Position numbers and translations under genes: made by a program. Shown here one piece after another: positions 37,367-45,082 of a stretch of DNA of 64,000 nt; the first letter of the stretch is position 1, and each line of letters opens with the position of its first letter. Origin of the DNA: Candidatus Latescibacterota bacterium (GTDB lineage Bacteria > JAAXHH01); NCBI GenBank assembly GCA_022821085.1, contig JAJEEG010000003.1, forward strand, positions 17,563 through 81,562, read 5' to 3'. The notes under the pieces were generated by a model. The model was not told where the DNA came from. It ran no database searches and worked only from the letters and a program-made list of their open reading frames with translations.

Positions 37367-37837
37367 TCAGTTTCCGATGATGCCCTCTTCGAGGTCGTCG
37401 GGCAGCCAGATCATGACCTGGCCGGATTCCGACTCGAGCAAGATCGGCGCGGCGATGGTTTTAATGTCATCCCGGGTGACGGAACGGGCGCCCGTCAGCA
37501 TGGCCCGTTCGATGATCAGTTCCGTCTGCGTATCGGTGATCAGGCCCAGTTCGCGAAGCTCCAGCAGGTAGCCGTACGCGTCCGGCTGGATCATCAGCTG
37601 TTCCACGGCGTGCAGAATCCGGTTGGGTTTAGGCTGAAGCGGCCTGGTCGGATCGACTACGACTTCCGCCTGCGCCTGGAGACGATCGAAGAGCCAGGCG
37701 AAGGCCGTGTTGACCTCCTGCTGGGTATAGCCGTGGCCGACCAGGGTCTGGGAGACGTCGGCGATGTCGTTGAAGCGGCCTTTTTCATCCTGCATGTGCT
37801 TCATGAGGAAAACGATGATTTCCATCACTTTTTCCAT
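37367..37837 (-). CDS. smg: Smg / DUF494 family protein
   Basis: L...GY...E...AF.WL, R.L...E, E.IIERAM; upstream of topA. Confidence 0.82.
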   Translation of the reverse strand: MEKVMEIIVFLMKHMQDEKGRFNDIADVSQTLVGHGYTQQEVNTAFAWLFDRLQAQAEVVVDPTRPLQPKPNRILHAVEQLMIQPDAYGYLLELRELGLITDTQTELIIERAMLTGARSVTRDDIKTIAAPILLESESGQVMIWLPDDLEEGIIGN

Positions 37838-37930
37838 GATTTTCTCCTGAAGGAATGCGAAGATGTGATTAGATCCGGGCCGAAGAACGACCCCTGGCCG
37901 TACACCGTACTTTTCGGTTTTCGCTGTCCA

Positions 37931-37959
37931 AATCTAAGCTTCCGGGGGGCCGCATGCAA
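37931..37959 (-). promoter_or_regulatory. Putative sigma70 promoter for smg-topA-xerC
   Basis: TTGCAT-17nt-TAGATT. Confidence 0.55.
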
Positions 37960-37984
37960 GTTTTTTTACCGGTCCCGGACGGCG

Positions 37985-39007
37985 TTACGCCGCTTCGAAC
38001 ACCTTGCCGATTTCATCCCTGTCGAAGACCGGGAGATCGGCGATTTCACCCTTGCTCCTGATCCGGATGCCGAATCCGGAAGGTTGTACGGACCCGATCT
38101 CGGCGACCGGGATGCCGGCTTCGTCAAGGTGGGCCGCCAGGGGCTCCGCACGGTCCGGGTCCACCACGATGAGCAGGGCGCCCGACGCGATGACGCCCAG
38201 GGGATCCAGGCCGTAAAACGCGCAGAGGGCCTCCGATTCCGGCAGCACCGGAATCCGTTCCTCCTCGATGAGCATGCCGACCCCGGAAGCGACCGCGATC
38301 TCCCGCAGTCCCGACGCGAGTCCGCCCTCCGTGGGATCGTGCATGGCGTGGACCCCGCCGGTTTCCATGGCAAGGCGGGCTTCCCTCACCACGCTGAGGC
38401 CGGGTTGCCTGAGGTAACGACGGCAGGTCTCGAGAAACTCGTCGGAGAATCGCGTCCGGACCTCGTCGCTTTTTTCCATGGCGATCAGCGCCGTCGCCTC
38501 GATGGCGATTCCCTTGGTCAGGAGAATCCGGTCGCCCACCCGGGCGCCGTCGCCCGAGACATAGCCGTCGGCCGTCGTTTCCCCCAGCATCTGCCCGATC
38601 AGCAGCGGCCGGTCCAGGCCGTGGGTGATTTCGGTGTGTCCCCCGCAGAGGGTGATGCCGAGTTCCCGGCAGGCGTCGGCCAGGCCGGAGAATATGCGGT
38701 CCACCAGGCCGGCGTCGGTTTTGGCTTCCGGAAGCAGTATGGTCGAGAGGAACCACCGGGGCGCCGCACCCATGGCGGCGACGTCGTTGGCATTGATATT
38801 GACGGCGTACCAGCCGATTTCCTCGGTGGCGAAGGTGATGGGGTCGGTTTTCGAGACGAGTACGCTGGAACCGAAGGAGATGACCGCCGCGTCCCGGCCG
38901 ATGCCCGGGCCCACGAGCAGTCTCGGGTCGGCGCCGGAAGCATAGCGGCGCAGGATGCGGTCCAGGTCTTCCGCGGGCAGCTTGCCGACCGGGTAATAGG
39001 GAGGCAT
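37985..39007 (-). CDS. AIR synthase / HypE / ThiL / SelD-fold ATP-binding protein
   Basis: GKLP, GPGIG.DAA, TDPIT, NAND, GGHTE, MHDPTEGG, SGAL. Confidence 0.85.
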   Translation of the reverse strand: MPPYYPVGKLPAEDLDRILRRYASGADPRLLVGPGIGRDAAVISFGSSVLVSKTDPITFATEEIGWYAVNINANDVAAMGAAPRWFLSTILLPEAKTDAGLVDRIFSGLADACRELGITLCGGHTEITHGLDRPLLIGQMLGETTADGYVSGDGARVGDRILLTKGIAIEATALIAMEKSDEVRTRFSDEFLETCRRYLRQPGLSVVREARLAMETGGVHAMHDPTEGGLASGLREIAVASGVGMLIEEERIPVLPESEALCAFYGLDPLGVIASGALLIVVDPDRAEPLAAHLDEAGIPVAEIGSVQPSGFGIRIRSKGEIADLPVFDRDEIGKVFEAA

Positions 39008-39053
39008 GTCTCGCTGATTGGCGTGGGTGCGTCGATGTCCGCGCGTCGGCGGT

Positions 39054-39356
39054 TTATTCCCGACGCTTCCGCTGGGCGCGCAAAGCTTCTTTCAGGATCT
39101 TGCCGGGCTTGAACTTGGCTTTCCGGCGGGCCGGGACCTCGATGGTGTAGCCGGTCCGCGGATTGCGGGCCGCCGGCTTGGGGCGGGTATTCCTGATCTC
39201 CAGCGCGCCGAATCCCCTGATCTCGATCCGGTTGCCTTCGACCAGGTTCTCCCGCATGATTTCGAAGAGCGCATCGATGACGGGGTAAATCTGCGTCTTT
39301 TTCAATCCCAGCGTCTCGCTGATTTCATTGACCAGTTCTCTGCGCGTTGTCGTCAT
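39054..39356 (-). CDS. HU/IHF family DNA-binding protein
   Basis: IEIRGFG, ARNPRTG, FKPGK.LK. Confidence 0.93.
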   Translation of the reverse strand: MTTTRRELVNEISETLGLKKTQIYPVIDALFEIMRENLVEGNRIEIRGFGALEIRNTRPKPAARNPRTGYTIEVPARRKAKFKPGKILKEALRAQRKRRE

Positions 39357-39373
39357 GAAGGTTCCTCGGTCCG

Positions 39374-40036
39374 TTACCCTTCGTTTCCGCCGGATGGATA
39401 GGGCCGGCCGTACATTCGGTGCAGCTTGTCCACGTTCTCCTGGTCGATGGAGTTGACCTGGCCGAGCATGCGCGCCACGAGGGCGATCTGTGCGCAGTGC
39501 TCCATGGTTTCCATCTTGTGATAGGCCGAAACGATGTCCGGCCCCAGGGTCAGCGCGCCGTGGTTTTCCAGCAGGACCGCGTCGTGGTTCCGTACGAATC
39601 CCCGGAGCGATTCGACCAGTTCCATGGTTCCCGGCGTCCCGTAGGGCGCGATGGGTACGAAACCCAGGGAGACGATCACCTCGGGCAGCAGGGCGTCGGG
39701 CAGATGCACACCGGCCACCGAGAAACCCGTCGCGGCCGGGGGATGGGCGTGGGCCACGGCGTGCACGTCCGGACGCTCCCGGTACACCATAAGGTGCATC
39801 TTCATCTCTGACGACGGCTCGTGCTTCCCCGAGATCACCGCGCCGTCGTAGTCGACGATCACGAATTTGTCCCGGTCCAGGAAACCCTTGCTCACCCCGG
39901 TCATCGTGATCAGCAAACGGTCCTCGGACAGTCGAACGCTTAAGTTCCCGTCGTTCGAGGCTACGTATCCCCGGTCATACATCCGCTTGCCGACGTGGAT
40001 TACGTCGGATACGACTTGCTCAAGTTGCAAAATCAC
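39374..40036 (-). CDS. Class II aldolase/adducin family protein
   Basis: DGNLSVR, SSE..MH, HAHP, LLENHG. Confidence 0.9.
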   Translation of the reverse strand: MILQLEQVVSDVIHVGKRMYDRGYVASNDGNLSVRLSEDRLLITMTGVSKGFLDRDKFVIVDYDGAVISGKHEPSSEMKMHLMVYRERPDVHAVAHAHPPAATGFSVAGVHLPDALLPEVIVSLGFVPIAPYGTPGTMELVESLRGFVRNHDAVLLENHGALTLGPDIVSAYHKMETMEHCAQIALVARMLGQVNSIDQENVDKLHRMYGRPYPSGGNEG

Positions 40037-40079
40037 GTTGTTCCGGTTGAAAGATTGCGGATTGCGGTGGTACGGTTCG

Positions 40080-40108
40080 AATATATCGGGCCCGCCGTCC
40101 CCTTACAA
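40080..40108 (-). promoter_or_regulatory. Putative sigma70 promoter for the aldolase-HU operon, with AT-rich upstream tract
   Basis: TTGTAA-17nt-TATATT. Confidence 0.5.
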
Positions 40109-40153
40109 GTATTATTATTTCCATAAGTTATAAGCAAGTTACAAGCCGGAGAT

Positions 40154-41587
40154 CTACAGGCCGGACTGCACGATTCGCGCCACGTCGGAGATGCGGTGCC
40201 GCGCCACGCCCCGCATATCGATCCGGACCCGGTCCCTGCCGCATTCGGCCAGCAGTGGCGGGGTTCCCTTCAACCACCGGGCCGCCAGGCCGCCGGGATC
40301 GCCGCCCGGCGGGCGTATGGATACGGCGTAACCGGACAACCCATCGGCGGGGAGGCGGTACGCCGTGAGATACGAACGGCTTTCGATCACGTCACACGCT
40401 CCGCGAAGCCGGCCGTCTTCCGCCAGGCGTTCGAACAGCAATCGGGCGCGGGCGCCTACCTCCTCCACAGACGCGGCCAGCGTGTGGGCCGCCGGATGGC
40501 ACGCGAGGTCGCAGGAGCCTTCGGCCAGTTCCGCCAGCCGCGCGTCGAATCCCGCTCTCACGTGATGGGAGGCCCGTGCCGCGGGCCAGGTGTCGTGCGA
40601 TTTCAGTCGCGCGATGATCTTTCGCGTCCCGATCAGCAGTCCGCAGGACGGGCCGCCGATCAGGCCGCCACCGGCCGCGATGGTCAGTGGCGTGCCGGAC
40701 CGCACGGCATCGGAAACCGAGCTCCTGGCCGCGAAGGGGGCGGAAGTGACCGGGCGCAACGTTGAATCGCCGGCCAGGCGAAGCACCGTGGCGCCGGACT
40801 CCGCTCCGGCCCGGACGATTTCCTCCAGCGCCGCTTCTTCGGTGAAACCTCGAAGGGCGCAGGTGGACGGACGCGCGGTGACGATCAGTGCGGTCCGGTC
40901 TCCCGCCGCACGCCGGTAGTCGGCCAGGCGCGTCTTGTTGGTTGCACCGGTCTCGACCATCGTGGCGCCGGCAAGCGCGCAGAGCGACAGCGGGTTCACG
41001 GGCCGATCCTCGTAAGGCGCGTCGATCAATCCCGCCTGGCTGCGGCCGATGACCACTTCCGCCCGTCCCGCGAGCGCGCGGACCGCCAGGAGGAAGGCGT
41101 CGGCGACGGACCGGCAGACCAGTACGTCTTCGGCGCCGGTCAATTCGCGCATGAGGCCGGCGGTTCGGCCGGACTCCTCGTAAGCCGCGAGGGTAAGGGC
41201 CAGCCCTGCGGCTCTCCCGGCGGCCGTTCCGGCGCAGGGGGCCCGCGCGAGCGGATGGAAGAGGATGCCGGAGGCGTTGATCAGCGCCCCGCTCGCCGAA
41301 TGGGCTTTATCCTCCAGGCGCGCGGCGGCCCTTTCGGCGAAGTGCTCCGGCGCGAATCCGTCCGCTTCCGAGAGTTCGCTGGCTTCCGCGTATCCGTCCG
41401 CTTCCTTCTCCGTGGGACGAAGCCGGATCCGGTCCCGTGCGTCGCGCAGCACCTTCCGGATCGCGGCGTCGATCTGCCCGTCCTCGAAACGTCCGCGCAG
41501 CGCCTCGATGCGGGATTCGCCTTGCACCAGGCGCACGGAAGGCAGGCGGGCAAACTGGCGCTGCAGCGCTTCCCGGTCGGCTTTCAT
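40154..41587 (-). CDS. SelA (selenocysteine synthase)-like protein lacking the catalytic PLP lysine
   Basis: SelA-like blocks LPSV, LINASG.L.H, TGAED, ETGATNKT..DY, GFT, GGP, IDMR; FSGDKLLGGP replaced by AAGGGLIGGP. Confidence 0.8.
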   Translation of the reverse strand: MKADREALQRQFARLPSVRLVQGESRIEALRGRFEDGQIDAAIRKVLRDARDRIRLRPTEKEADGYAEASELSEADGFAPEHFAERAAARLEDKAHSASGALINASGILFHPLARAPCAGTAAGRAAGLALTLAAYEESGRTAGLMRELTGAEDVLVCRSVADAFLLAVRALAGRAEVVIGRSQAGLIDAPYEDRPVNPLSLCALAGATMVETGATNKTRLADYRRAAGDRTALIVTARPSTCALRGFTEEAALEEIVRAGAESGATVLRLAGDSTLRPVTSAPFAARSSVSDAVRSGTPLTIAAGGGLIGGPSCGLLIGTRKIIARLKSHDTWPAARASHHVRAGFDARLAELAEGSCDLACHPAAHTLAASVEEVGARARLLFERLAEDGRLRGACDVIESRSYLTAYRLPADGLSGYAVSIRPPGGDPGGLAARWLKGTPPLLAECGRDRVRIDMRGVARHRISDVARIVQSGL

Positions 41588-42336
41588 CGGTCCCTGCCCT
41601 CCCGGTTCACCGCATCGAGTGCGGCTTCCGTGTATCGGCCGGTCAGGCGGTCGCCATCGGCGCGCAGCGTCCGGATTTCTCGCGCGAGCCGGTCCAGGTC
41701 GGCGGGACGGTCCACGTCGTGCCAGGCCGGGAGTTCATGGCATGAAAAACCATTTGCCCGGATGGCCGCCCGGGTCTGCCGCAATACGCGGCCGGTGCCC
41801 CAGTGTATCGATTCGAACAGTCGGTCGTACCGGCCGTCGACGTTTCTCCTGCCGCCCGGACCGCCCGGTCCACTCAGTCCGATCAGGTAATAACCTCCAT
41901 CGTCGGCGGGTCCGAGCACGACGTCGTACCGGTCCAGCGCTTCGAAAGCCTCTTCGATGTAATCCTGGGGGAGGAGCGGGCTGTCACCACCCAGCGCGAC
42001 GGTCTTTTCCCATCCGTCCTGCCGAAAGGCCGTGAAGGCGTTCGACAACCGTTCCCCGAGATGGCTGCCTCTCTGACAGAGCCAGTTCACGTCGGGATCG
42101 TCCGGACAGCCCGGACAGCCCAGGGCGGAAACGAGTTCCGCCCGTCCGTCGTCGGGCGTCCAGGCCACGAAGAGGGAAGCGACCGCGGTCCGCTGTGCCA
42201 GGTGCAGCGTGTCCAGGATGAAGGCGCGGTATAGCTCCGCGGCCTCGTCCATCGTTACTCGTGGCGTCAACCGGGTTTTCACGGTCCCGGGTCTCGGGGC
42301 TTTCATAAACAGGACGAGGGCGTTCGACATGGGCAT
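41584..42336 (-). CDS. TIGR04282/DUF2064 family glycosyltransferase-like protein
   Basis: KAP.PG.VKTRL, Q.G..LG.R, G.DSP, LGPA.DGGYYLIG, I.WG, DVD; start 42336 or 42330. Confidence 0.88.
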   Translation of the reverse strand: MPMSNALVLFMKAPRPGTVKTRLTPRVTMDEAAELYRAFILDTLHLAQRTAVASLFVAWTPDDGRAELVSALGCPGCPDDPDVNWLCQRGSHLGERLSNAFTAFRQDGWEKTVALGGDSPLLPQDYIEEAFEALDRYDVVLGPADDGGYYLIGLSGPGGPGGRRNVDGRYDRLFESIHWGTGRVLRQTRAAIRANGFSCHELPAWHDVDRPADLDRLAREIRTLRADGDRLTGRYTEAALDAVNREGRDR

Positions 42337-42409
42337 GTGCCGATCGGGAGGCTGTGGGGAAGGCCTGGTCCGCCCGGAAGGCGGCAAGGCGTTTCCCCGG
42401 GTCCCATGC

Positions 42410-42438
42410 ATACTACCGGCCGGCCGACGGCGTGTCAA
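42410..42438 (-). promoter_or_regulatory. Putative sigma70 promoter for the glycosyltransferase-selA-like pair
   Basis: TTGACA-17nt-TAGTAT. Confidence 0.65.
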
Positions 42439-42452
42439 TTAAAACGCTTATT

Positions 42453-42465
42453 TATCAACTATTTA
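42453..42465 (+). promoter_or_regulatory. Putative IHF binding site between divergent promoters
   Basis: TATCAActatTTA matches WATCAANNNNTTR in an AT-rich tract. Confidence 0.45.
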
Positions 42466-42597
42466 ACTCGTCTTCAATCCGCTCGGAATCAACAATAAGC
42501 CTTGACATGAAGGCCGGCTGATCTTTATTTTCGGCGTTTCCTACCGGCACGCCGGATCACCCGATTCGGCGGACCCAGGCGGAATCAAAGGCTTGCC

Positions 42598-42672
42598 GTG
42601 CGGACCGAAGCCGGCAAAGAGACGCTAAGCGACGGTGTGCGGACCGAAGCCCGGCAGAGAGGCGTTGTGCGA
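42598..42672. repeat. ~35-bp direct repeat x2 in the nrnA leader
   Basis: gtgcggaccgaagcc(c)ggca(a/g)agag(a/g)cg...gcga. Confidence 0.8.
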
Positions 42673-42697
42673 TGCCGCCGGGACGGATCCATGGAAG

Positions 42698-43675
42698 ATG
42701 GTTATGTGGGATGAAGTCAAGGCAGTCATCGCATCGAACCAGTCCTTCGTGATCTCCAGCCACGTCAATCCCGACGGGGATTCGATCGGGTCGGCACTGG
42801 GGGTCTGCGAATGCCTGAAAGCGCTGGGGAAGGACGTTGTCGTCGCCATGAACGACGCCATACCCGCCGCCTATACCTGGCTGGACCCCGAAGAGGAAAT
42901 CCTCGCGCCCGCTCAGGAGAATGAGATGGAGCGCCTCGCCGCCGCGGACGTGGTCGTAATCGTGGACGCCAACAGCTGGGACAGGCTGGGGCGGCTGCGA
43001 AAGCCGCTGGAGGAATCGGCGGCGGTCAAGATCGTGATCGACCACCATCCCTACGCTGAACTGATCACGCCTTTGTCTGTGATCGACACGAAGGCGTCCT
43101 CGACGGCTGAACTGGTTTACGACCTGATCGACTCGATCGGCGCGCCGCTCACGTCGAGGGCGGCGGACGCGCTGTACACGGGCATCCTGACCGATACCGT
43201 GTCGTTCCGCTTCGCCAGGAGCGCGCCGTGCGCCCATATCGTCGCGGCCAAACTCCTTTCCAAGGGCGTCGACCCGTCCCGGGTCTACGACCAGATCTAC
43301 AACCGGAACACCGGCGCCCGTACCCGGCTCATGGGCCGCGCGCTCTCCAATATACAGTTTACCGGTAGTGGCCGCGTCGCCTGGCTGACCGTTACCCGAT
43401 CCATGATAGCAGAAACCGGCGCCCGGTCCTCGGACACGAGCGGGTTCGTGGACGTGACCATGACCATCGCCGGTGTCGAAATCGGGATCATATTCGTGGA
43501 AGGCAGGGAAGGTACGGTACAGATCAGCTTGCGGTCCCGGCCGGAAATCGACGTCAACCAGGTCGCCGTGGCCCTGGGCGGCGGCGGCCACAAGAACGCC
43601 GCAGGCGTGACATTAAACGGTACGCTGGAAGAAGCCGTCCGGACCGTGACGGAAGCGGCAGTCGAAGCGTTGTAA
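42698..43675 (+). CDS. nrnA: DHH/DHHA1 nanoRNase / pAp phosphatase
   Basis: H.NPDGD..GS, IDHH, GILTDT..F, SLRSR, GGGGH..AAG. Confidence 0.92.
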   Translation: MVMWDEVKAVIASNQSFVISSHVNPDGDSIGSALGVCECLKALGKDVVVAMNDAIPAAYTWLDPEEEILAPAQENEMERLAAADVVVIVDANSWDRLGRLRKPLEESAAVKIVIDHHPYAELITPLSVIDTKASSTAELVYDLIDSIGAPLTSRAADALYTGILTDTVSFRFARSAPCAHIVAAKLLSKGVDPSRVYDQIYNRNTGARTRLMGRALSNIQFTGSGRVAWLTVTRSMIAETGARSSDTSGFVDVTMTIAGVEIGIIFVEGREGTVQISLRSRPEIDVNQVAVALGGGGHKNAAGVTLNGTLEEAVRTVTEAAVEAL

Positions 43676-43700: not shown

Positions 43701-44525
43701 ATGATGCTCATTACGCGAAAAACCCGGTTCTCGGCGGCCCACCTGTGCCGCAACCCGGGATGGACGGAGGAGAGGAACCGGCGGGTTTACGGTTCCTGCG
43801 CCGTCGGCACAGTCCACGGTCACGACTACGAGGCCGAATTCACCTTCGGTGGGCCGGTCGATCCCCGGACCGGCGTGGTCCTGAACCTGACCGAGGTCAA
43901 GCAGCACCTGCGCGCCGTGATCGAACCGCTGGACCTGAGCCACCTGAATTACGACCACGGCGCCCTGGGAGGTCCGGCGCCGACCAGCGAAAGGCTCGTC
44001 CGGTACCTCTGGAACGCGCTGGAAAGCGGTACCGGGCCATGCGTACTCAAACGCGTCCTGCTGCGCGAGAGCCGCGCGAGAAACATCGCATACACCGGAG
44101 ACGACAGCATGGTCCACGTCACGAGAAGCGTCGAGTTCAACGCCGCCCACCGCCTGCACAGTATAAGGTTGAGCGACGAAGAAAACGTGCGTATATTCGG
44201 AAAGTGCAACAACCCCCACGGCCACGGACACAACTATGAGCTGGAGGTGACGGTCCGCGGCCCGGTGGACGAGAAGACCGGGACGGTCATCGACATGGGG
44301 CGTTTCGATGACGTCCTGCAGAAGGAAGTCGTGGATCGCTACGACCATCGGCACCTGAACCGGGACCTGGAGGAATTCAGGACGGTCAATCCGACTTCGG
44401 AGGAACTGCTCAGGGTGATCTGGAAGCGGCTCCTTCCATTCTTCGATACCCCTTCGCTCTACCGGATTCGCCTGGTGGAGACGTCCAAGAACGCTTTCGA
44501 TTACTATGGCGAGGAGGACCGGTGA
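43701..44525 (+). CDS. Tandem two-domain 6-pyruvoyl-tetrahydropterin synthase (PTPS/QueD family)
   Basis: Two repeats: FSAAH...GSC...HGHDY...PTSE and FNAAH...[13 protein letters not shown]...PTSE. Confidence 0.88.
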
Positions 44526-45082
44526 CCACGATGGACCCGATCGAGGGATTGACGAGGTCGCTGCTCGCGGAGATCGGCGAGGACCCGGACCGGGACGGTC
44601 TCAGGCGCACGCCCCTCCGCGTGGCGCAGTCCCTGCGGTTTCTGACCCAGGGTTATGAAAAAAGCATTGAATCCGTCATCAACGGCGCTATCTATGAAGA
44701 GGATTACGACGAGATGGTGCTGGTGAAGGACATCGAGTTCTTTTCGCTGTGCGAGCACCACCTGCTGCCCTTCTTCGGCCAGTGCCATATCGCATACATT
44801 CCCAACGGCAAAATCATCGGGCTGGGCAAGATCCCCCGCATCGTGGACGTCTTTTCACGGCGGCTCCAGTTGCAGGAACGCCTGACCTCCCAGATCGCCC
44901 AGACCCTGCAGGCCTGGCTCGATCCCCTGGGGGTGGCCGTTGTCATGGAAGCCGGCCACTTGTGCATGATGATGCGCGGCGTGGAGAAACAGCACTCCAA
45001 GGCGACGACGAGCGCCATGCTCGGCGTGTTCAGGGACGATCGCAGTACCCGGATGGAATTCCTCGACCTGACCCGGTCGTAG
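44522..45082 (+). CDS. folE: GTP cyclohydrolase I
   Basis: [36 protein letters not shown]. Confidence 0.96.

Follow-up and report, generated by a model that had tools for sequence, protein, structure and literature searches.

A conserved SelA paralog without the catalytic lysine, encoded beside a TIGR04282 transferase in a phylum whose catalytic SelA is truncated

In the textbook account, bacteria make selenocysteine (Sec) with a single homodecameric enzyme, SelA, whose N-terminal domain selects tRNA-Sec while the reaction takes place on a neighbouring dimer. The PLP Schiff-base lysine of SelA is numbered K285 in A. aeolicus and K295 in E. coli. The accessible text of PMC4607533 describes the tRNA as held by one dimer and processed by the neighbouring one, so that binding and catalysis on different subunits are already the rule, and it assigns selenophosphate binding in A. 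aeolicus SelA to R86, R312 and R315, with R119 and D284 as helpers. The same portion of that source reports the N-terminal domain in all Sec-using organisms and connects its loss in Helicobacter and Frankia with loss of the Sec trait.

Here we compare these systems with a SelA paralog encoded in a 64,000-nt stretch of DNA (the window) from a Candidatus Latescibacterota bacterium. The paralog and its neighbours are arranged as follows.

40154-41587, minus strand: coding sequence of the full-length SelA paralog without the lysine (open reading frame, PF03841, TIGR00474, AlphaFold model)
40664-40666, minus strand: GGC codon of Gly308, at the PLP Schiff-base lysine position (alignments to 8uzw and 3w1h; codon read)
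41417-41587, minus strand: N-terminal helical domain of the paralog (residues 1-57), homologous to the tRNA-Sec-binding domain of SelA (hhalign)
41584-42336, minus strand: coding sequence of a TIGR04282/DUF2064 transferase, 250 aa from the first ATG (TIGR04282, PF09837)
41584-41587, minus strand: ATGA overlap of the transferase TGA with the paralog ATG (41585-41587), read from the sequence
42410-42438, minus strand: TTGACA-17-TAGTAT, a sigma-70-like promoter element preceding the pair (agrees with the consensus at 10 of 12 positions)
39374-40036, minus strand: class II aldolase family gene directly downstream of the paralog (PF00596, 164 bits)
37985-39007, minus strand: PurM-superfamily (AIR-synthase-like) gene, a conserved neighbour (PF00586, PF02769)
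42635-43675, plus strand: DHH/DHHA1 phosphoesterase gene, divergent from the pair, a conserved neighbour (PF01368, PF02272)

The original prediction described an intact SelA-like reading frame with its family motifs, and the frame indeed runs for 477 aa with no interruption and contains every motif named (LPSV at residue 15, LINASG at 102, TGAED at 150, GATNKT at 214, GFT at 247 and AAGGGLIGGP at 304). The Pfam SelA model PF03841 placed the paralog in the superfamily (125.5 bits; threshold, 22.8), and the NCBIfam selA model TIGR00474 spanned it end to end (residues 13-474 with model positions 2-454 of 455) at 173.1 bits, under the equivalog cut-off of 267.9. The model of the DgaE/SelA-related ammonia lyases, TIGR01437, gave 19.9 bits against a cut-off of 385.3. 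The AlphaFold model (pLDDT 88.8) had 3w1h, 3wco and 8uzw as its top fold matches, with TM-scores of 0.82-0.85 when normalised by target length, and contains the fold-type I PLP fold and the SelA-specific C-terminal domain as predicted features. A protein-atlas search returned SelA-domain clusters only, among which Planctomycota was the commonest taxon, and orthologs with an intact reading frame were found in 32 of the 33 genomes of the phylum.

Because AAGGGL falls under FSGDKL when the paralog is aligned with the SelA of E. coli (8uzw) and that of A. aeolicus (3w1h), Gly308 occupies the position of the PLP lysine, as the original prediction had read. Among 25 genomes, the orthologs carry Gly at this position in 24 and Glu in one, and Lys in none, against Lys in all 33 canonical SelA proteins compared. 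The motifs NNNA, ELVEIGG and DLGSG, which had also been listed as replaced, read RSVA, AGLIDAP and LAGDS. At the positions of K285, D284, S282 and R312 (A. aeolicus numbering) the paralog has G, G, A and P, respectively; the R119 stretch is deleted, the R86 equivalent is kept as R115, and the R315 equivalent is Arg in the window's paralog and Gln in 83% of paralogs, so the selenophosphate-binding arginines and their helpers are present only in part. The conserved DxGSG Asp and VH.SN His of SelA, which we take to be contacts of the PLP ring, read L and R. The paralog of one genome, G025, scored 350.7 bits on TIGR00474, above the equivalog cut-off, without the lysine. The alignments, the predicted model and the N-terminal profile comparison together bear out the claim that the fold was kept while the PLP site was lost, and from these sequence comparisons we tentatively read the paralog as a non-catalytic SelA (pseudo-SelA) that kept the SelA fold and N-terminal domain and may have lost its hold on PLP and selenophosphate.

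The same changes could instead mark a remodelled pocket with a new, PLP-independent activity; the paralog, the transferase and the aldolase would then make up a small pathway. Within the genus, the paralog-specific residues R159, S160, C203, R239, D274, T276 and R278 are fixed near the old site, as are H342, R350, H364, H368, C398, Y410 and W438; the loop AGGGLIGGPxCG hardly varies among 47 sequences, and relatives of the transferase act on small phospho-acids. However, almost none of the genus-fixed residues stay fixed across the phylum (10 diverse paralogs), where the invariant columns are mostly those in common with canonical SelA and the paralog-specific invariants with a reactive side chain are only T276, T408 and C315. 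The motifs at the old site also vary between genera (GGG, GDG, GSG, ADG and SE), which resembles released constraint and not a new catalytic set, and we consider a new activity unlikely.

Conservation of the locus indicated that the missing residues are not a sign of decay. No frameshift or stop occurred in the paralog in 32 genomes spanning three families, and its dN/dS was approximately 0.34 (dS 0.25, 45 close pairs), similar to that of the transferase (0.31). Since the loss of the lysine is both conserved and under purifying selection, the paralog is not decaying, and loss of catalytic residues under such selection is a feature of prozyme-type paralogs. The paralog does evolve faster than its neighbours (58-86% identity, against 79-98% for the aldolase and 94-100% for an IHF/HU-like protein), and its active-site motifs have drifted, as would be expected of a functionless relic of a duplicated selA; however, the open frames, the dN/dS, the conserved start/stop coupling and promoter, and the confidently predicted fold make such a relic extremely improbable, and the selection and conservation data already contradict it. 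The original prediction had set the gene apart from ordinary decay, and everything that it named as telling against this turned out otherwise: the lysine is absent from the orthologs, frameshifts are absent and dN/dS is not near 1, and the gene pair is conserved.

Contigs from coral and sponge metatranscriptomes match 40127-40626 (approximately 96% alike) and 40722-41171 (approximately 92% alike), and parts of the aldolase gene are matched as well. These contigs come from relatives and from libraries that can hold DNA, so they cannot show transcripts and are at most a hint that the paralog gene is expressed; the missing contigs over the transferase carry no information on expression.

The N-terminal domain of the paralog is homologous to that of canonical SelA, with an hhalign probability of 96.6% against canonical N-terminal domains and an HMM alignment that begins at model position 2. 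None of P16, V18, R44 and R51 varies among the paralogs, and their columns are the only N-terminal columns conserved at 90% or more in canonical SelA; dN/dS in the domain was 0.24 (close pairs). The Pfam profile PF12390 matched four of six paralog N-termini but not that of the window's own paralog. A PF12390 search of the genome gave no credible match, and the profile must be regarded as insensitive there because the window paralog's own domain escapes it. An HMM of the paralog N-terminal domain found no other frame across the genome (G000; next best, 10.4 bits), and the paralog is thus the only detectable carrier of a SelA N-terminal domain in this genome. As to a homodecamer, which was considered through ring-contact residue conservation alone, the paralog retains T192, D199 and Y200 (its T216, D223 and Y224) and does not retain R174 and T191.

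The gene upstream of the paralog encodes a member of the TIGR04282 family (170.8 bits; cut-off, 134), with 94 bits on PF09837 and with all 33 of the columns that are invariant among 39 family members. Its nearest solved structure is 3cgx, of unknown function, followed by CofC/FbiD-type guanylyltransferases. The family assignment of the original prediction therefore stood, although the name attached to it, a selenodomain-associated transferase, did not, because NCBIfam now calls TIGR04282 an 'arsenosugar biosynthesis glycosyltransferase'. Members of the family are usually associated in the genome with a radical-SAM partner, ArsS, whose model TIGR04167 reached at best 30.4 bits in this genome against a cut-off of 300.

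The predicted overlap of the paralog ATG with the transferase stop is real, and the pairing and order of the two genes are kept in 25 of 25 loci from five genera. The overlap is the same 4-nt ATGA in 21 of these loci, the other four having spacings of -17, -11, +2 and +96 nt, so that in 24 the two genes either overlap or stand no more than 2 nt apart. The pair also has the promoter element ascribed to it, and TTGAC[AT]-17-TAnnnT recurs at a comparable distance in all but one of the 25 loci, the 25th being one in which the transferase N-terminus could not be aligned; positions 37800-43000 contain three promoter-like sites, against 0.7 +/- 0.8 in shuffled sequence. The aldolase gene follows the paralog in 24 loci (in the other, L012, the contig ends before that point) and has a promoter-like site of its own at 40108-40080. 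The PurM-like gene fell under the cut-offs of the hypE, thiL and selD models, and a true ThiL is encoded elsewhere in the genome; the DHH gene scored 124.8 bits with the NrnA model, against a cut-off of 350. The membership of the aldolase, the PurM-like gene and the DHH/DHHA1 gene in a module with the pair is uncertain. A complex prediction for the paralog and the transferase returned no answer (score 0.00), which speaks neither for nor against binding.

Homologs of SelA without the lysine also occur in Planctomycetota (proteins P0146, P0158, P0185, P0205, P0216, P0229, P0247 and P0268; loci L099, L113, L130, L136, L145, L148 and others). Like the paralog, they are full length with an LPSV-type N-terminus, have G, R, Q or D in place of the Schiff-base lysine and have degraded motifs elsewhere in the active site; unlike it, they have no TIGR04282 neighbour, and their neighbourhoods contained no conserved partner of recognisable function. 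Such a protein is the only SelA homolog in nine of ten genomes checked, the tenth also having a full-length canonical SelA, and SelB was over its cut-off in none of five genomes, which indicates that SelA without the lysine can persist without a truncated partner and without Sec. The tRNA-Sec model RF01852 gave a borderline 41-52 bits in five Planctomycete genomes (threshold, 47), a range to be read beside the 5 of 14 control genomes that also pass.

Loci encoding proteins without the lysine were sought with degenerate DNA letters encoding G-[DG]-G-L-x-G-[GA]-P-x-C-G, a pattern that is blind to K to R, Q or E replacements. Among the 120 matches listed, six belonged to this phylum and 104 had no SelA-like tblastn hit (103 of these matched no query, and L103 gave a weak DHH match only); the number of outside lineages is a lower bound. 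In a FastTree phylogeny all proteins without the lysine join, and in an IQ-TREE phylogeny the Planctomycete proteins group with Planctomycete SelA and the paralog stands beside the phylum's own SelA; an AU test rejected neither of the two origin constraints (p 0.57 and 0.58). The pairing of transferase and paralog that had been put forward as a two-gene module is conserved, but its width may be wrong in either direction, since the Planctomycetota homologs have no such neighbour. In the literature searched we found no account of any of these features, the Planctomycetota homologs included, in keeping with the description of the module as new.

The original prediction raised the question of a separate canonical set of selA, selB, selC and selD. 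The genome contains a tRNA-Sec, selB (347 bits), selD (250 bits) and a second SelA with 485 bits on TIGR00474, but this catalytic SelA is truncated and not canonical. In all 31 genomes where it is assembled whole, the catalytic SelA is without the tRNA-Sec-binding N-terminal domain, scoring 474-506 bits and starting at model position 48-73; that of G007 lies in two pieces in one frame. Eight of ten reading frames, called from the aligned start, are 397-422 aa long, and the remaining two, of 452 and 491 aa, open at an earlier start codon. In G000 only 25 nt separate the start from the end of the upstream gene, too few to encode the missing domain. SGDK is kept in 23 of 23 truncated proteins. 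In the database, 76 clusters at least 56% identical to the truncated SelA are 312-444 aa long and none has PF12390, whereas the next 44 clusters are 442-502 aa long and 38 have it; by this sequence comparison the truncated form appears as a coherent clade. The truncated SelA, with its lysine and the rest of the active site but no N-terminal domain, therefore has the opposite defect to the paralog, and the two occur together in 31 of 33 genomes. For the co-occurrence count, the transferase gene of G045 is cut by the contig end exactly where the paralog would follow, and the G025 genome is 83% complete. The selA, selB and tRNA-Sec genes lie on another contig, and the paralog is not encoded near them.

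The Sec system is also in use: in at least four genes, an in-frame TGA stands where known (seleno)protein families have their redox Cys or Sec. These four were kept for their family matches from a genome-wide scan that yielded 294 candidates, mostly noise in this GC-rich sequence; a fifth candidate, L072 (SPTUGHC), matched no family and was set aside. None of the PF00384 molybdopterin enzymes in the genome has an in-frame TGA, so a Sec-containing formate dehydrogenase was not found among them.

The truncation of the catalytic SelA makes a different and simpler job available to the paralog that keeps the domain, and the two proteins may share one job. Our favoured reading, put forward with reserve, is that the truncated SelA gets its tRNA-Sec recognition from the paralog, which would act as its non-catalytic partner. 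The two would divide the labour of one enzyme: the N-terminal domain of the paralog would bind Ser-tRNA-Sec and the paralog would offer the acceptor end to the active site of the truncated SelA, either in a mixed pentamer-of-dimers ring or by hand-over between rings. We infer both that the paralog binds tRNA-Sec and that it makes contact with the truncated SelA. The observed basis is the loss of catalytic residues, the purifying selection, the complementary architecture, the co-occurrence and the Sec system in use. Co-occurrence with a catalytic copy without the N-terminal domain (31 of 33) corresponds to the prozyme pattern of a dead paralog beside a deficient one; by analogy with the literature on A. 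aeolicus SelA, the truncated SelA would be deficient on its own. Because all 33 genomes belong to one small phylum, the co-occurrence amounts to a single evolutionary event. Against shared labour, rate covariation between the paralog and the truncated SelA was at control level (0.00-0.31; controls mean 0.18, sd 0.21); the strong covariation of the paralog is with the transferase and with two neighbouring genes. Translation of the paralog is coupled to that of the transferase in a two-gene operon, its gene lies away from selA, selB and tRNA-Sec, Planctomycetota have their own homologs without the lysine, and the ring contacts R174 and T191 are not kept. Shared labour leaves the role of the transferase unexplained.

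The main rival, close to the idea of the original prediction, takes up that role: the paralog would be a non-catalytic scaffold or binding subunit of the co-translated transferase in a process separate from Sec-tRNA synthesis, possibly one that also involves the PurM-like enzyme and the DHH phosphoesterase. The target would be a tRNA or other RNA held by the N-terminal domain, or a small phosphorylated molecule, and the truncation of the catalytic SelA would be an unrelated event. The constant gene order, the close spacing, the recurring promoter-like element and the similar dN/dS of the two genes all favour this rival. So does rate covariation, at 0.68-0.79 between paralog and transferase, 0.65-0.82 between paralog and PurM-like protein and 0.51-0.69 between paralog and DHH protein; the six pairs among these four genes were the top six of 55 and stable to leaving out any one branch. 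(A first run with a thin background and no controls gave 0.59-0.79 for all three focal pairs and was replaced by these controlled runs.) The persistence of the Planctomycete homologs without SelB, and a transferase that keeps every family-invariant residue in a genome without ArsS, point the same way. However, at all 10 loci compared among the matches listed, those homologs have neither TIGR04282 nor aldolase nor DHH genes beside them, so the pairing is confined to one phylum in which gene order is generally conserved. The covarying genes also form one contiguous block within which the aldolase partly covaries (0.26-0.54), and a shared recombination history could produce such a signal. Nor does a separate process explain how this Sec-using phylum gets by with a SelA without the tRNA-recognition domain. 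We regard it as a genuine but somewhat doubtful possibility.

The tRNA and the transferase could also be joined in one route, with the dead SelA as a platform holding tRNA-Sec on which the transferase, as a CofC/MobA-like nucleotidyltransferase, activates the seryl hydroxyl of Ser-tRNA-Sec as a phospho- or nucleotidyl-ester, perhaps assisted by the covarying PurM-like ATP enzyme and DHH phosphoesterase, before the truncated SelA exchanges that group for selenium. This is a very improbable scheme; if true, it would be a bacterial counterpart, built from different parts, of the two-step PSTK/SepSecS route of archaea and eukaryotes.

Sec is thus used throughout a phylum whose catalytic SelA has no N-terminal domain and whose second, retained SelA possesses the domain but not the active site. 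Should the two forms cooperate as in the shared-labour reading, they would be a natural experiment in which recognition was split from catalysis in a ring enzyme, and a clear example in bacteria of complementary loss after duplication. Otherwise, the questions become how the truncated SelA tells tRNA-Sec from tRNA-Ser and what job a conserved dead SelA does when coupled to a transferase. In either case, the Sec trait will be mis-scored wherever annotation labels every SelA-family match 'SelA', as the G025 paralog illustrates.

Compared with SelA itself (TIGR00474; 3w1h, 3w1k and 8uzw), the paralog has the same whole-length fold, including the N-terminal helical domain, and the GxTNKT, DY, GF and GGP motifs and C-terminal D.R in common. 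It differs in being without the Schiff-base lysine, the DxGSG Asp and the VH.SN His, in the replaced R312 equivalent and deleted R119 stretch, and in a gene that adjoins a transferase gene and not selB. The transferase resembles other TIGR04282/DUF2064 proteins (3cgx) in score and family-invariant residues, but ArsS was not found in its genome and its gene is translationally coupled here to a dead SelA. Prozyme pairs such as trypanosomatid deoxyhypusine synthase, as presented in the available part of PMC3663545, offer a proposed likeness in that selection keeps a dead paralog beside an impaired catalytic one; here, what would be complemented is a substrate-recognition domain and not allosteric activation, and any hetero-oligomer of the pair is hypothetical. 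The SelA homologs without the N-terminal domain, namely HpSelA of Helicobacter pylori and H. acinonychis, those of some Frankia and the DgaE/MJ0158 lineage, are likewise SelA-family proteins that left Sec synthesis and persist under purifying selection, according to the accessible text of PMC4607533, which describes them as keeping the catalytic residues and losing the tRNA-binding domain in genomes without Sec. The paralog is their mirror image, with the domain kept and the catalytic residues lost, and the truncated catalytic SelA of this phylum, unlike those homologs, sits in Sec-using genomes.

The window carries an uninterrupted open reading frame for a SelA homolog without the catalytic lysine (the paralog), which is preceded by a gene of the TIGR04282/DUF2064 family (the transferase). 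The features of this region are as follows:

42635-43675, plus strand: DHH/DHHA1 gene, divergent
42438-42410, minus strand: promoter-like TTGACA-17-TAGTAT, upstream of the transferase-paralog pair
41584-42336, minus strand: TIGR04282/DUF2064 transferase (170.8 bits; cut-off, 134)
40154-41587, minus strand: Lys-less SelA paralog, 477 codons
40664-40666, minus strand: codon at the Schiff-base Lys position of the paralog, GGC (Gly308)
39374-40036, minus strand: aldolase gene

The selA equivalog model of NCBIfam, TIGR00474, aligned residues 13-474 of the paralog with model positions 2-454 of 455, confirming the original prediction of a SelA-like frame that is intact end to end; the score was 173.1 bits, under the 267.9 cut-off, and that of the Pfam SelA model was 125.5 bits. 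The FSGDKL motif of 8uzw (E. coli) and 3w1h (A. aeolicus) aligned with AAGGGL in the paralog, in agreement with the predicted replacement of the catalytic lysine by glycine. A comparison of 33 canonical SelA and 47 sequences of the paralog family gave 137 columns with a conservation of 90% or more among the canonical proteins; the paralog keeps 62 of these and has lost 75. The lost columns include the three motifs said to be replaced, NNN(A) (now RSV(A)), E.GG (L.DA) and the Asp of DxGSG (L271), together with a conserved His (R239), S-G-D-K (A-G-G-G) and both Arg following the GGP loop. PMC4607533, citing Itoh et al., lists K285, R86, R312, R315, R119, D284, S217 and S282 as functional residues of A. 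aeolicus SelA. Only R86 (R115) and S217 (S241) are kept in all paralogs; the equivalent of R315 is Arg338 in the window's paralog and Gln in 83% of paralogs. Because most of these functional residues are lost, the paralog cannot be a PLP-dependent Sec synthase.

The AlphaFold model of the paralog, built with 77 sequences, was confident (pLDDT, 88.8; pTM, 0.84), and the structures closest to it were SelA entries. Three ring-contact residues, T192, D199 and Y200, are kept as T216, D223 and Y224, and two others, R174 and T191, are replaced. Among 10 diverse paralogs, the invariant columns were mostly those common to canonical SelA. Many paralog-specific residues seem fixed inside a genus and are variable across the phylum, and the former Lys motif differs by genus (GGG, GDG, GSG, ADG or SE), which argues against a new enzyme. 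The pattern looks like the release of catalytic constraint on a retained scaffold, with no new catalytic set. Each observed detail of the original prediction was confirmed, and the proposal that the gene encodes a pseudoenzyme is supported by the loss of active-site residues, the modelled SelA fold and the selection described below.

The window's genome falls in a group ranked as a phylum by the genome collection; it comprises a single order with three families, six genera and 33 species genomes, whose NCBI labels are inconsistent ("Gemmatimonadetes bacterium" and "Candidatus Latescibacteria"). The paralog was present in 32 of the 33; in the remaining genome (G045), the contig end cuts the transferase ortholog exactly where the paralog is expected next. 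The Lys column of 25 extracted paralogs, one per genome, held Gly in 24, Glu in one and Lys in none, and Lys was likewise absent from all 46 database clusters (57-97% identity). The pairing with the transferase proved real and conserved within the phylum: the order transferase-paralog-aldolase with the divergent DHH gene was found at 25/25 loci from five genera, one contig (L012) stopping before the aldolase. The predicted overlap of the paralog start with the transferase stop (ATGA) was found, and the same 4-nt overlap occurs at 21 of the 25 loci (the other four: -17, -11, +2 and +96 nt); the promoter-like element attributed to the pair occurs at 24. Over 45 closely related pairs (dS, about 0.25), the dN/dS of the paralog was 0.34, that of the transferase 0.31, that of the aldolase 0.13 and that of an IHF/HU-like gene 0, values well apart from the dN/dS near 1 that ordinary decay would give. 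Within the paralog, the N-terminal domain had a dN/dS of 0.24, the linker 0.53, the core 0.31 and the C-terminal domain 0.36. The paralog evolves fast yet clearly under selection, with an N-terminal domain constrained no less than its core. A decaying gene is excluded by the uninterrupted frame, this dN/dS and the conservation of both the Lys loss and the gene order.

The least diverged paralog, that of genome G025 (contig C80 19922-21277, locus L029), keeps NN, the Asp of DxG and both Arg past the GGP loop; it scored 350.7 bits, over the selA equivalog cut-off, yet has Gly at the Lys position, and looks like an intermediate step in the loss of the active site. No truncated SelA, as defined below, was found in this genome (83% complete).

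As for the transferase, its family assignment stands, and the name "glycosyltransferase" is a mere label, since the nearest solved relatives by sequence are 3cgx (function unknown) and then the CofC/FbiD guanylyltransferases and KdsB. No functional study of DUF2064, TIGR04282 or PF09837 was apparent in the titles and abstracts of the matches listed. The window's genome (G000) contained no ArsS, the top TIGR04167 match reaching 30.4 bits where the cut-off is 300. A second TIGR04282-like gene of G000 (contig C7 13333-14181, L245 1833-2681; 111 bits, below the cut-off) lies directly upstream of murD. In G007, the transferase does not align to the window's protein over its N-terminal two thirds, although both Pfam domains are present in the corresponding database entry, P0324 (284 aa).

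A second SelA of G000, lying outside the window, scored 485 bits, with a TIGR00474 match that starts only at model position 70:

[quoted passage not shown]

An amidase-like gene stops 25 nt before its 422-aa frame, so no upstream part is missing. All 31 whole high-scoring SelA of the phylum (474-506 bits) start at model position 48-73. The frames were 397-422 aa in eight of 10 examined; those called in G010 and G022 were 452 and 491 aa, from an earlier start codon, and the SelA model still matched only from 54-59. In G007, an in-frame insertion leaves two model pieces inside one 581-aa frame. SGDK was kept in 23/23 truncated SelA examined. The 76 database clusters at least 56% identical to the truncated SelA were 312-444 aa long, none with PF12390, and the next 44 among the matches listed (at most 54% identity) were 442-502 aa, 38 with PF12390, a sharp break between the truncated clade and other SelA.

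The question raised by the original prediction, whether separate canonical sel genes exist, thus has a divided answer: selB, tRNA-Sec and selD (250 bits) are present in G000, and the other SelA lacks the N-terminal domain. The tRNA-Sec gene directly follows selB, and both are about 17 kb from the truncated SelA. The SelD domain (C1 767874-768836, L047/L075) is inside a 785-aa open frame and is probably fused to another domain. Four predicted selenoprotein genes of G000, on C1 and C5 (L070, L071, L073 and L074), read TGA in frame where known (seleno)protein families have their redox Cys or Sec. Two encode peroxidase-related AhpD-like proteins with C-x-x-U (TIGR01926; 138.5 and 116.9 bits), one a UGSC-family protein (PF24696; 140 bits) and one a SelT/W/H (Rdx) protein (TIGR02174; 65.1 bits). 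A fifth candidate (L072), a secreted thioredoxin-like protein with the motif SPTUGHC, matches no family. By this gene content, the Sec trait is in use in G000.

The domain absent from the truncated SelA is recognizable in the paralogs. A profile of six paralog N-termini matched canonical SelA N-termini with an hhalign probability of 96.6%, and four of the six matched PF12390 individually (best E-value, 1.2e-14); the N-terminus of the window's own paralog gave no PF12390 match. Just four N-terminal columns, P16, V18, R44 and R51, reach 90% conservation among canonical SelA, and each is invariant in the paralogs of the phylum. A search of all frames of G000 with an HMM of the domain revealed no other carrier (next best, 10.4 bits). 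In this Sec-using phylum, the domain is thus confined to the dead SelA and the active site to the domain-less SelA, for which the simplest reading is recognition in trans: the dead SelA would supply tRNA-Sec recognition to the truncated catalytic SelA. We tentatively regard this as the likeliest function of the paralog; however, every case of the two genes occurring together is from one small clade, and the cases amount to a single event.

It is nearly as likely as this shared job that the paralog serves a separate function around the transferase, and neither reading excludes the other. Rate covariation was computed for 11 proteins after the common component had been removed from branch lengths, estimated on one fixed topology that joins 17 genomes of the genus by 31 branches. 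Control pairs gave a mean of 0.18 (sd, 0.21; maximum, 0.63), and the linked positive control, QueD-like/FolE, gave 0.53. The paralog covaried with the transferase at 0.68-0.79, with a PurM-like gene at 0.65-0.82, above any other pair tested, and with the DHH gene at 0.51-0.69. These four form six pairs, which were the top six of 55 and were stable to leaving out any branch; this supports the paralog-transferase link. However, the four genes share one 5.7-kb block (37985-43675), within which the aldolase covaries in part (0.26-0.54), so that a shared recombination history is an alternative cause; the covariation could reflect either a functional module or a recombination block. The truncated SelA covaried with the paralog at control level (0.00-0.31), which counts against a shared job, although such a negative is weak evidence against contact between the two proteins.

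The PurM-superfamily gene (37985-39007, minus strand) matched hypE (112.9 bits), thiL (110.4) and selD (100.7), each well under the cut-off. Its nearest solved structure is HypE, and the protein is 88-98% identical within the genus; ThiL was rejected, the true ThiL (265 bits) being on contig C2. At 43701-45082 (plus strand) lies the pair that served as positive control, a tandem-domain 6-pyruvoyl-tetrahydropterin-synthase-like (QueD-like) gene and a GTP cyclohydrolase I-like gene, names read from the translations only; the former overlaps the start of the latter at 44522-44525.

Lys-less homologs also occur elsewhere. Among 151 compared proteins, the window's paralog and the 150 best representatives by the paralog profile, Lys was absent in 19. 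A pattern scan of species genomes, which gives lower bounds, detected at least 10 full-length Lys-less homologs in Planctomycetota (L099, L113, L130, L136, L145, L148, L084, L115, L155 and L193). None of the 10 loci had a TIGR04282, aldolase or DHH neighbour, and the Lys-less protein was the sole SelA homolog in nine of the 10 genomes; G054 had a full-length canonical SelA (542.6 bits) alongside it. SelB over the cut-off was found in none of the five genomes tested. Several of these homologs, with scores up to 308 bits, approach or exceed the cut-off of TIGR00474 and would therefore be annotated as SelA. FastTree joined them with the paralog; IQ-TREE placed them apart and grouped the paralog with the SelA lineage of the phylum itself; and the AU test rejected neither arrangement (p = 0.57 and 0.58). 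The Planctomycetota cases show that neither Sec nor a truncated partner is required for a dead SelA with the N-terminal domain to persist, which again counts against tRNA-Sec recognition for the truncated SelA.

Our full-text literature search revealed neither a description of a Lys-less SelA paralog, consistent with the claim that this gene is undescribed, nor any account of a lineage that uses Sec with a SelA lacking the domain. In A. aeolicus SelA, deletion of the N-terminal domain reportedly abolished tRNA binding (Itoh et al. 2013). In support of the proposed recognition in trans, a tRNA bound to one SelA dimer is processed at the active site of its neighbour, according to PMC4607533. The same paper places the N-terminal domain in all surveyed Sec-using organisms and associates its loss in Helicobacter and Frankia with loss of the Sec trait.
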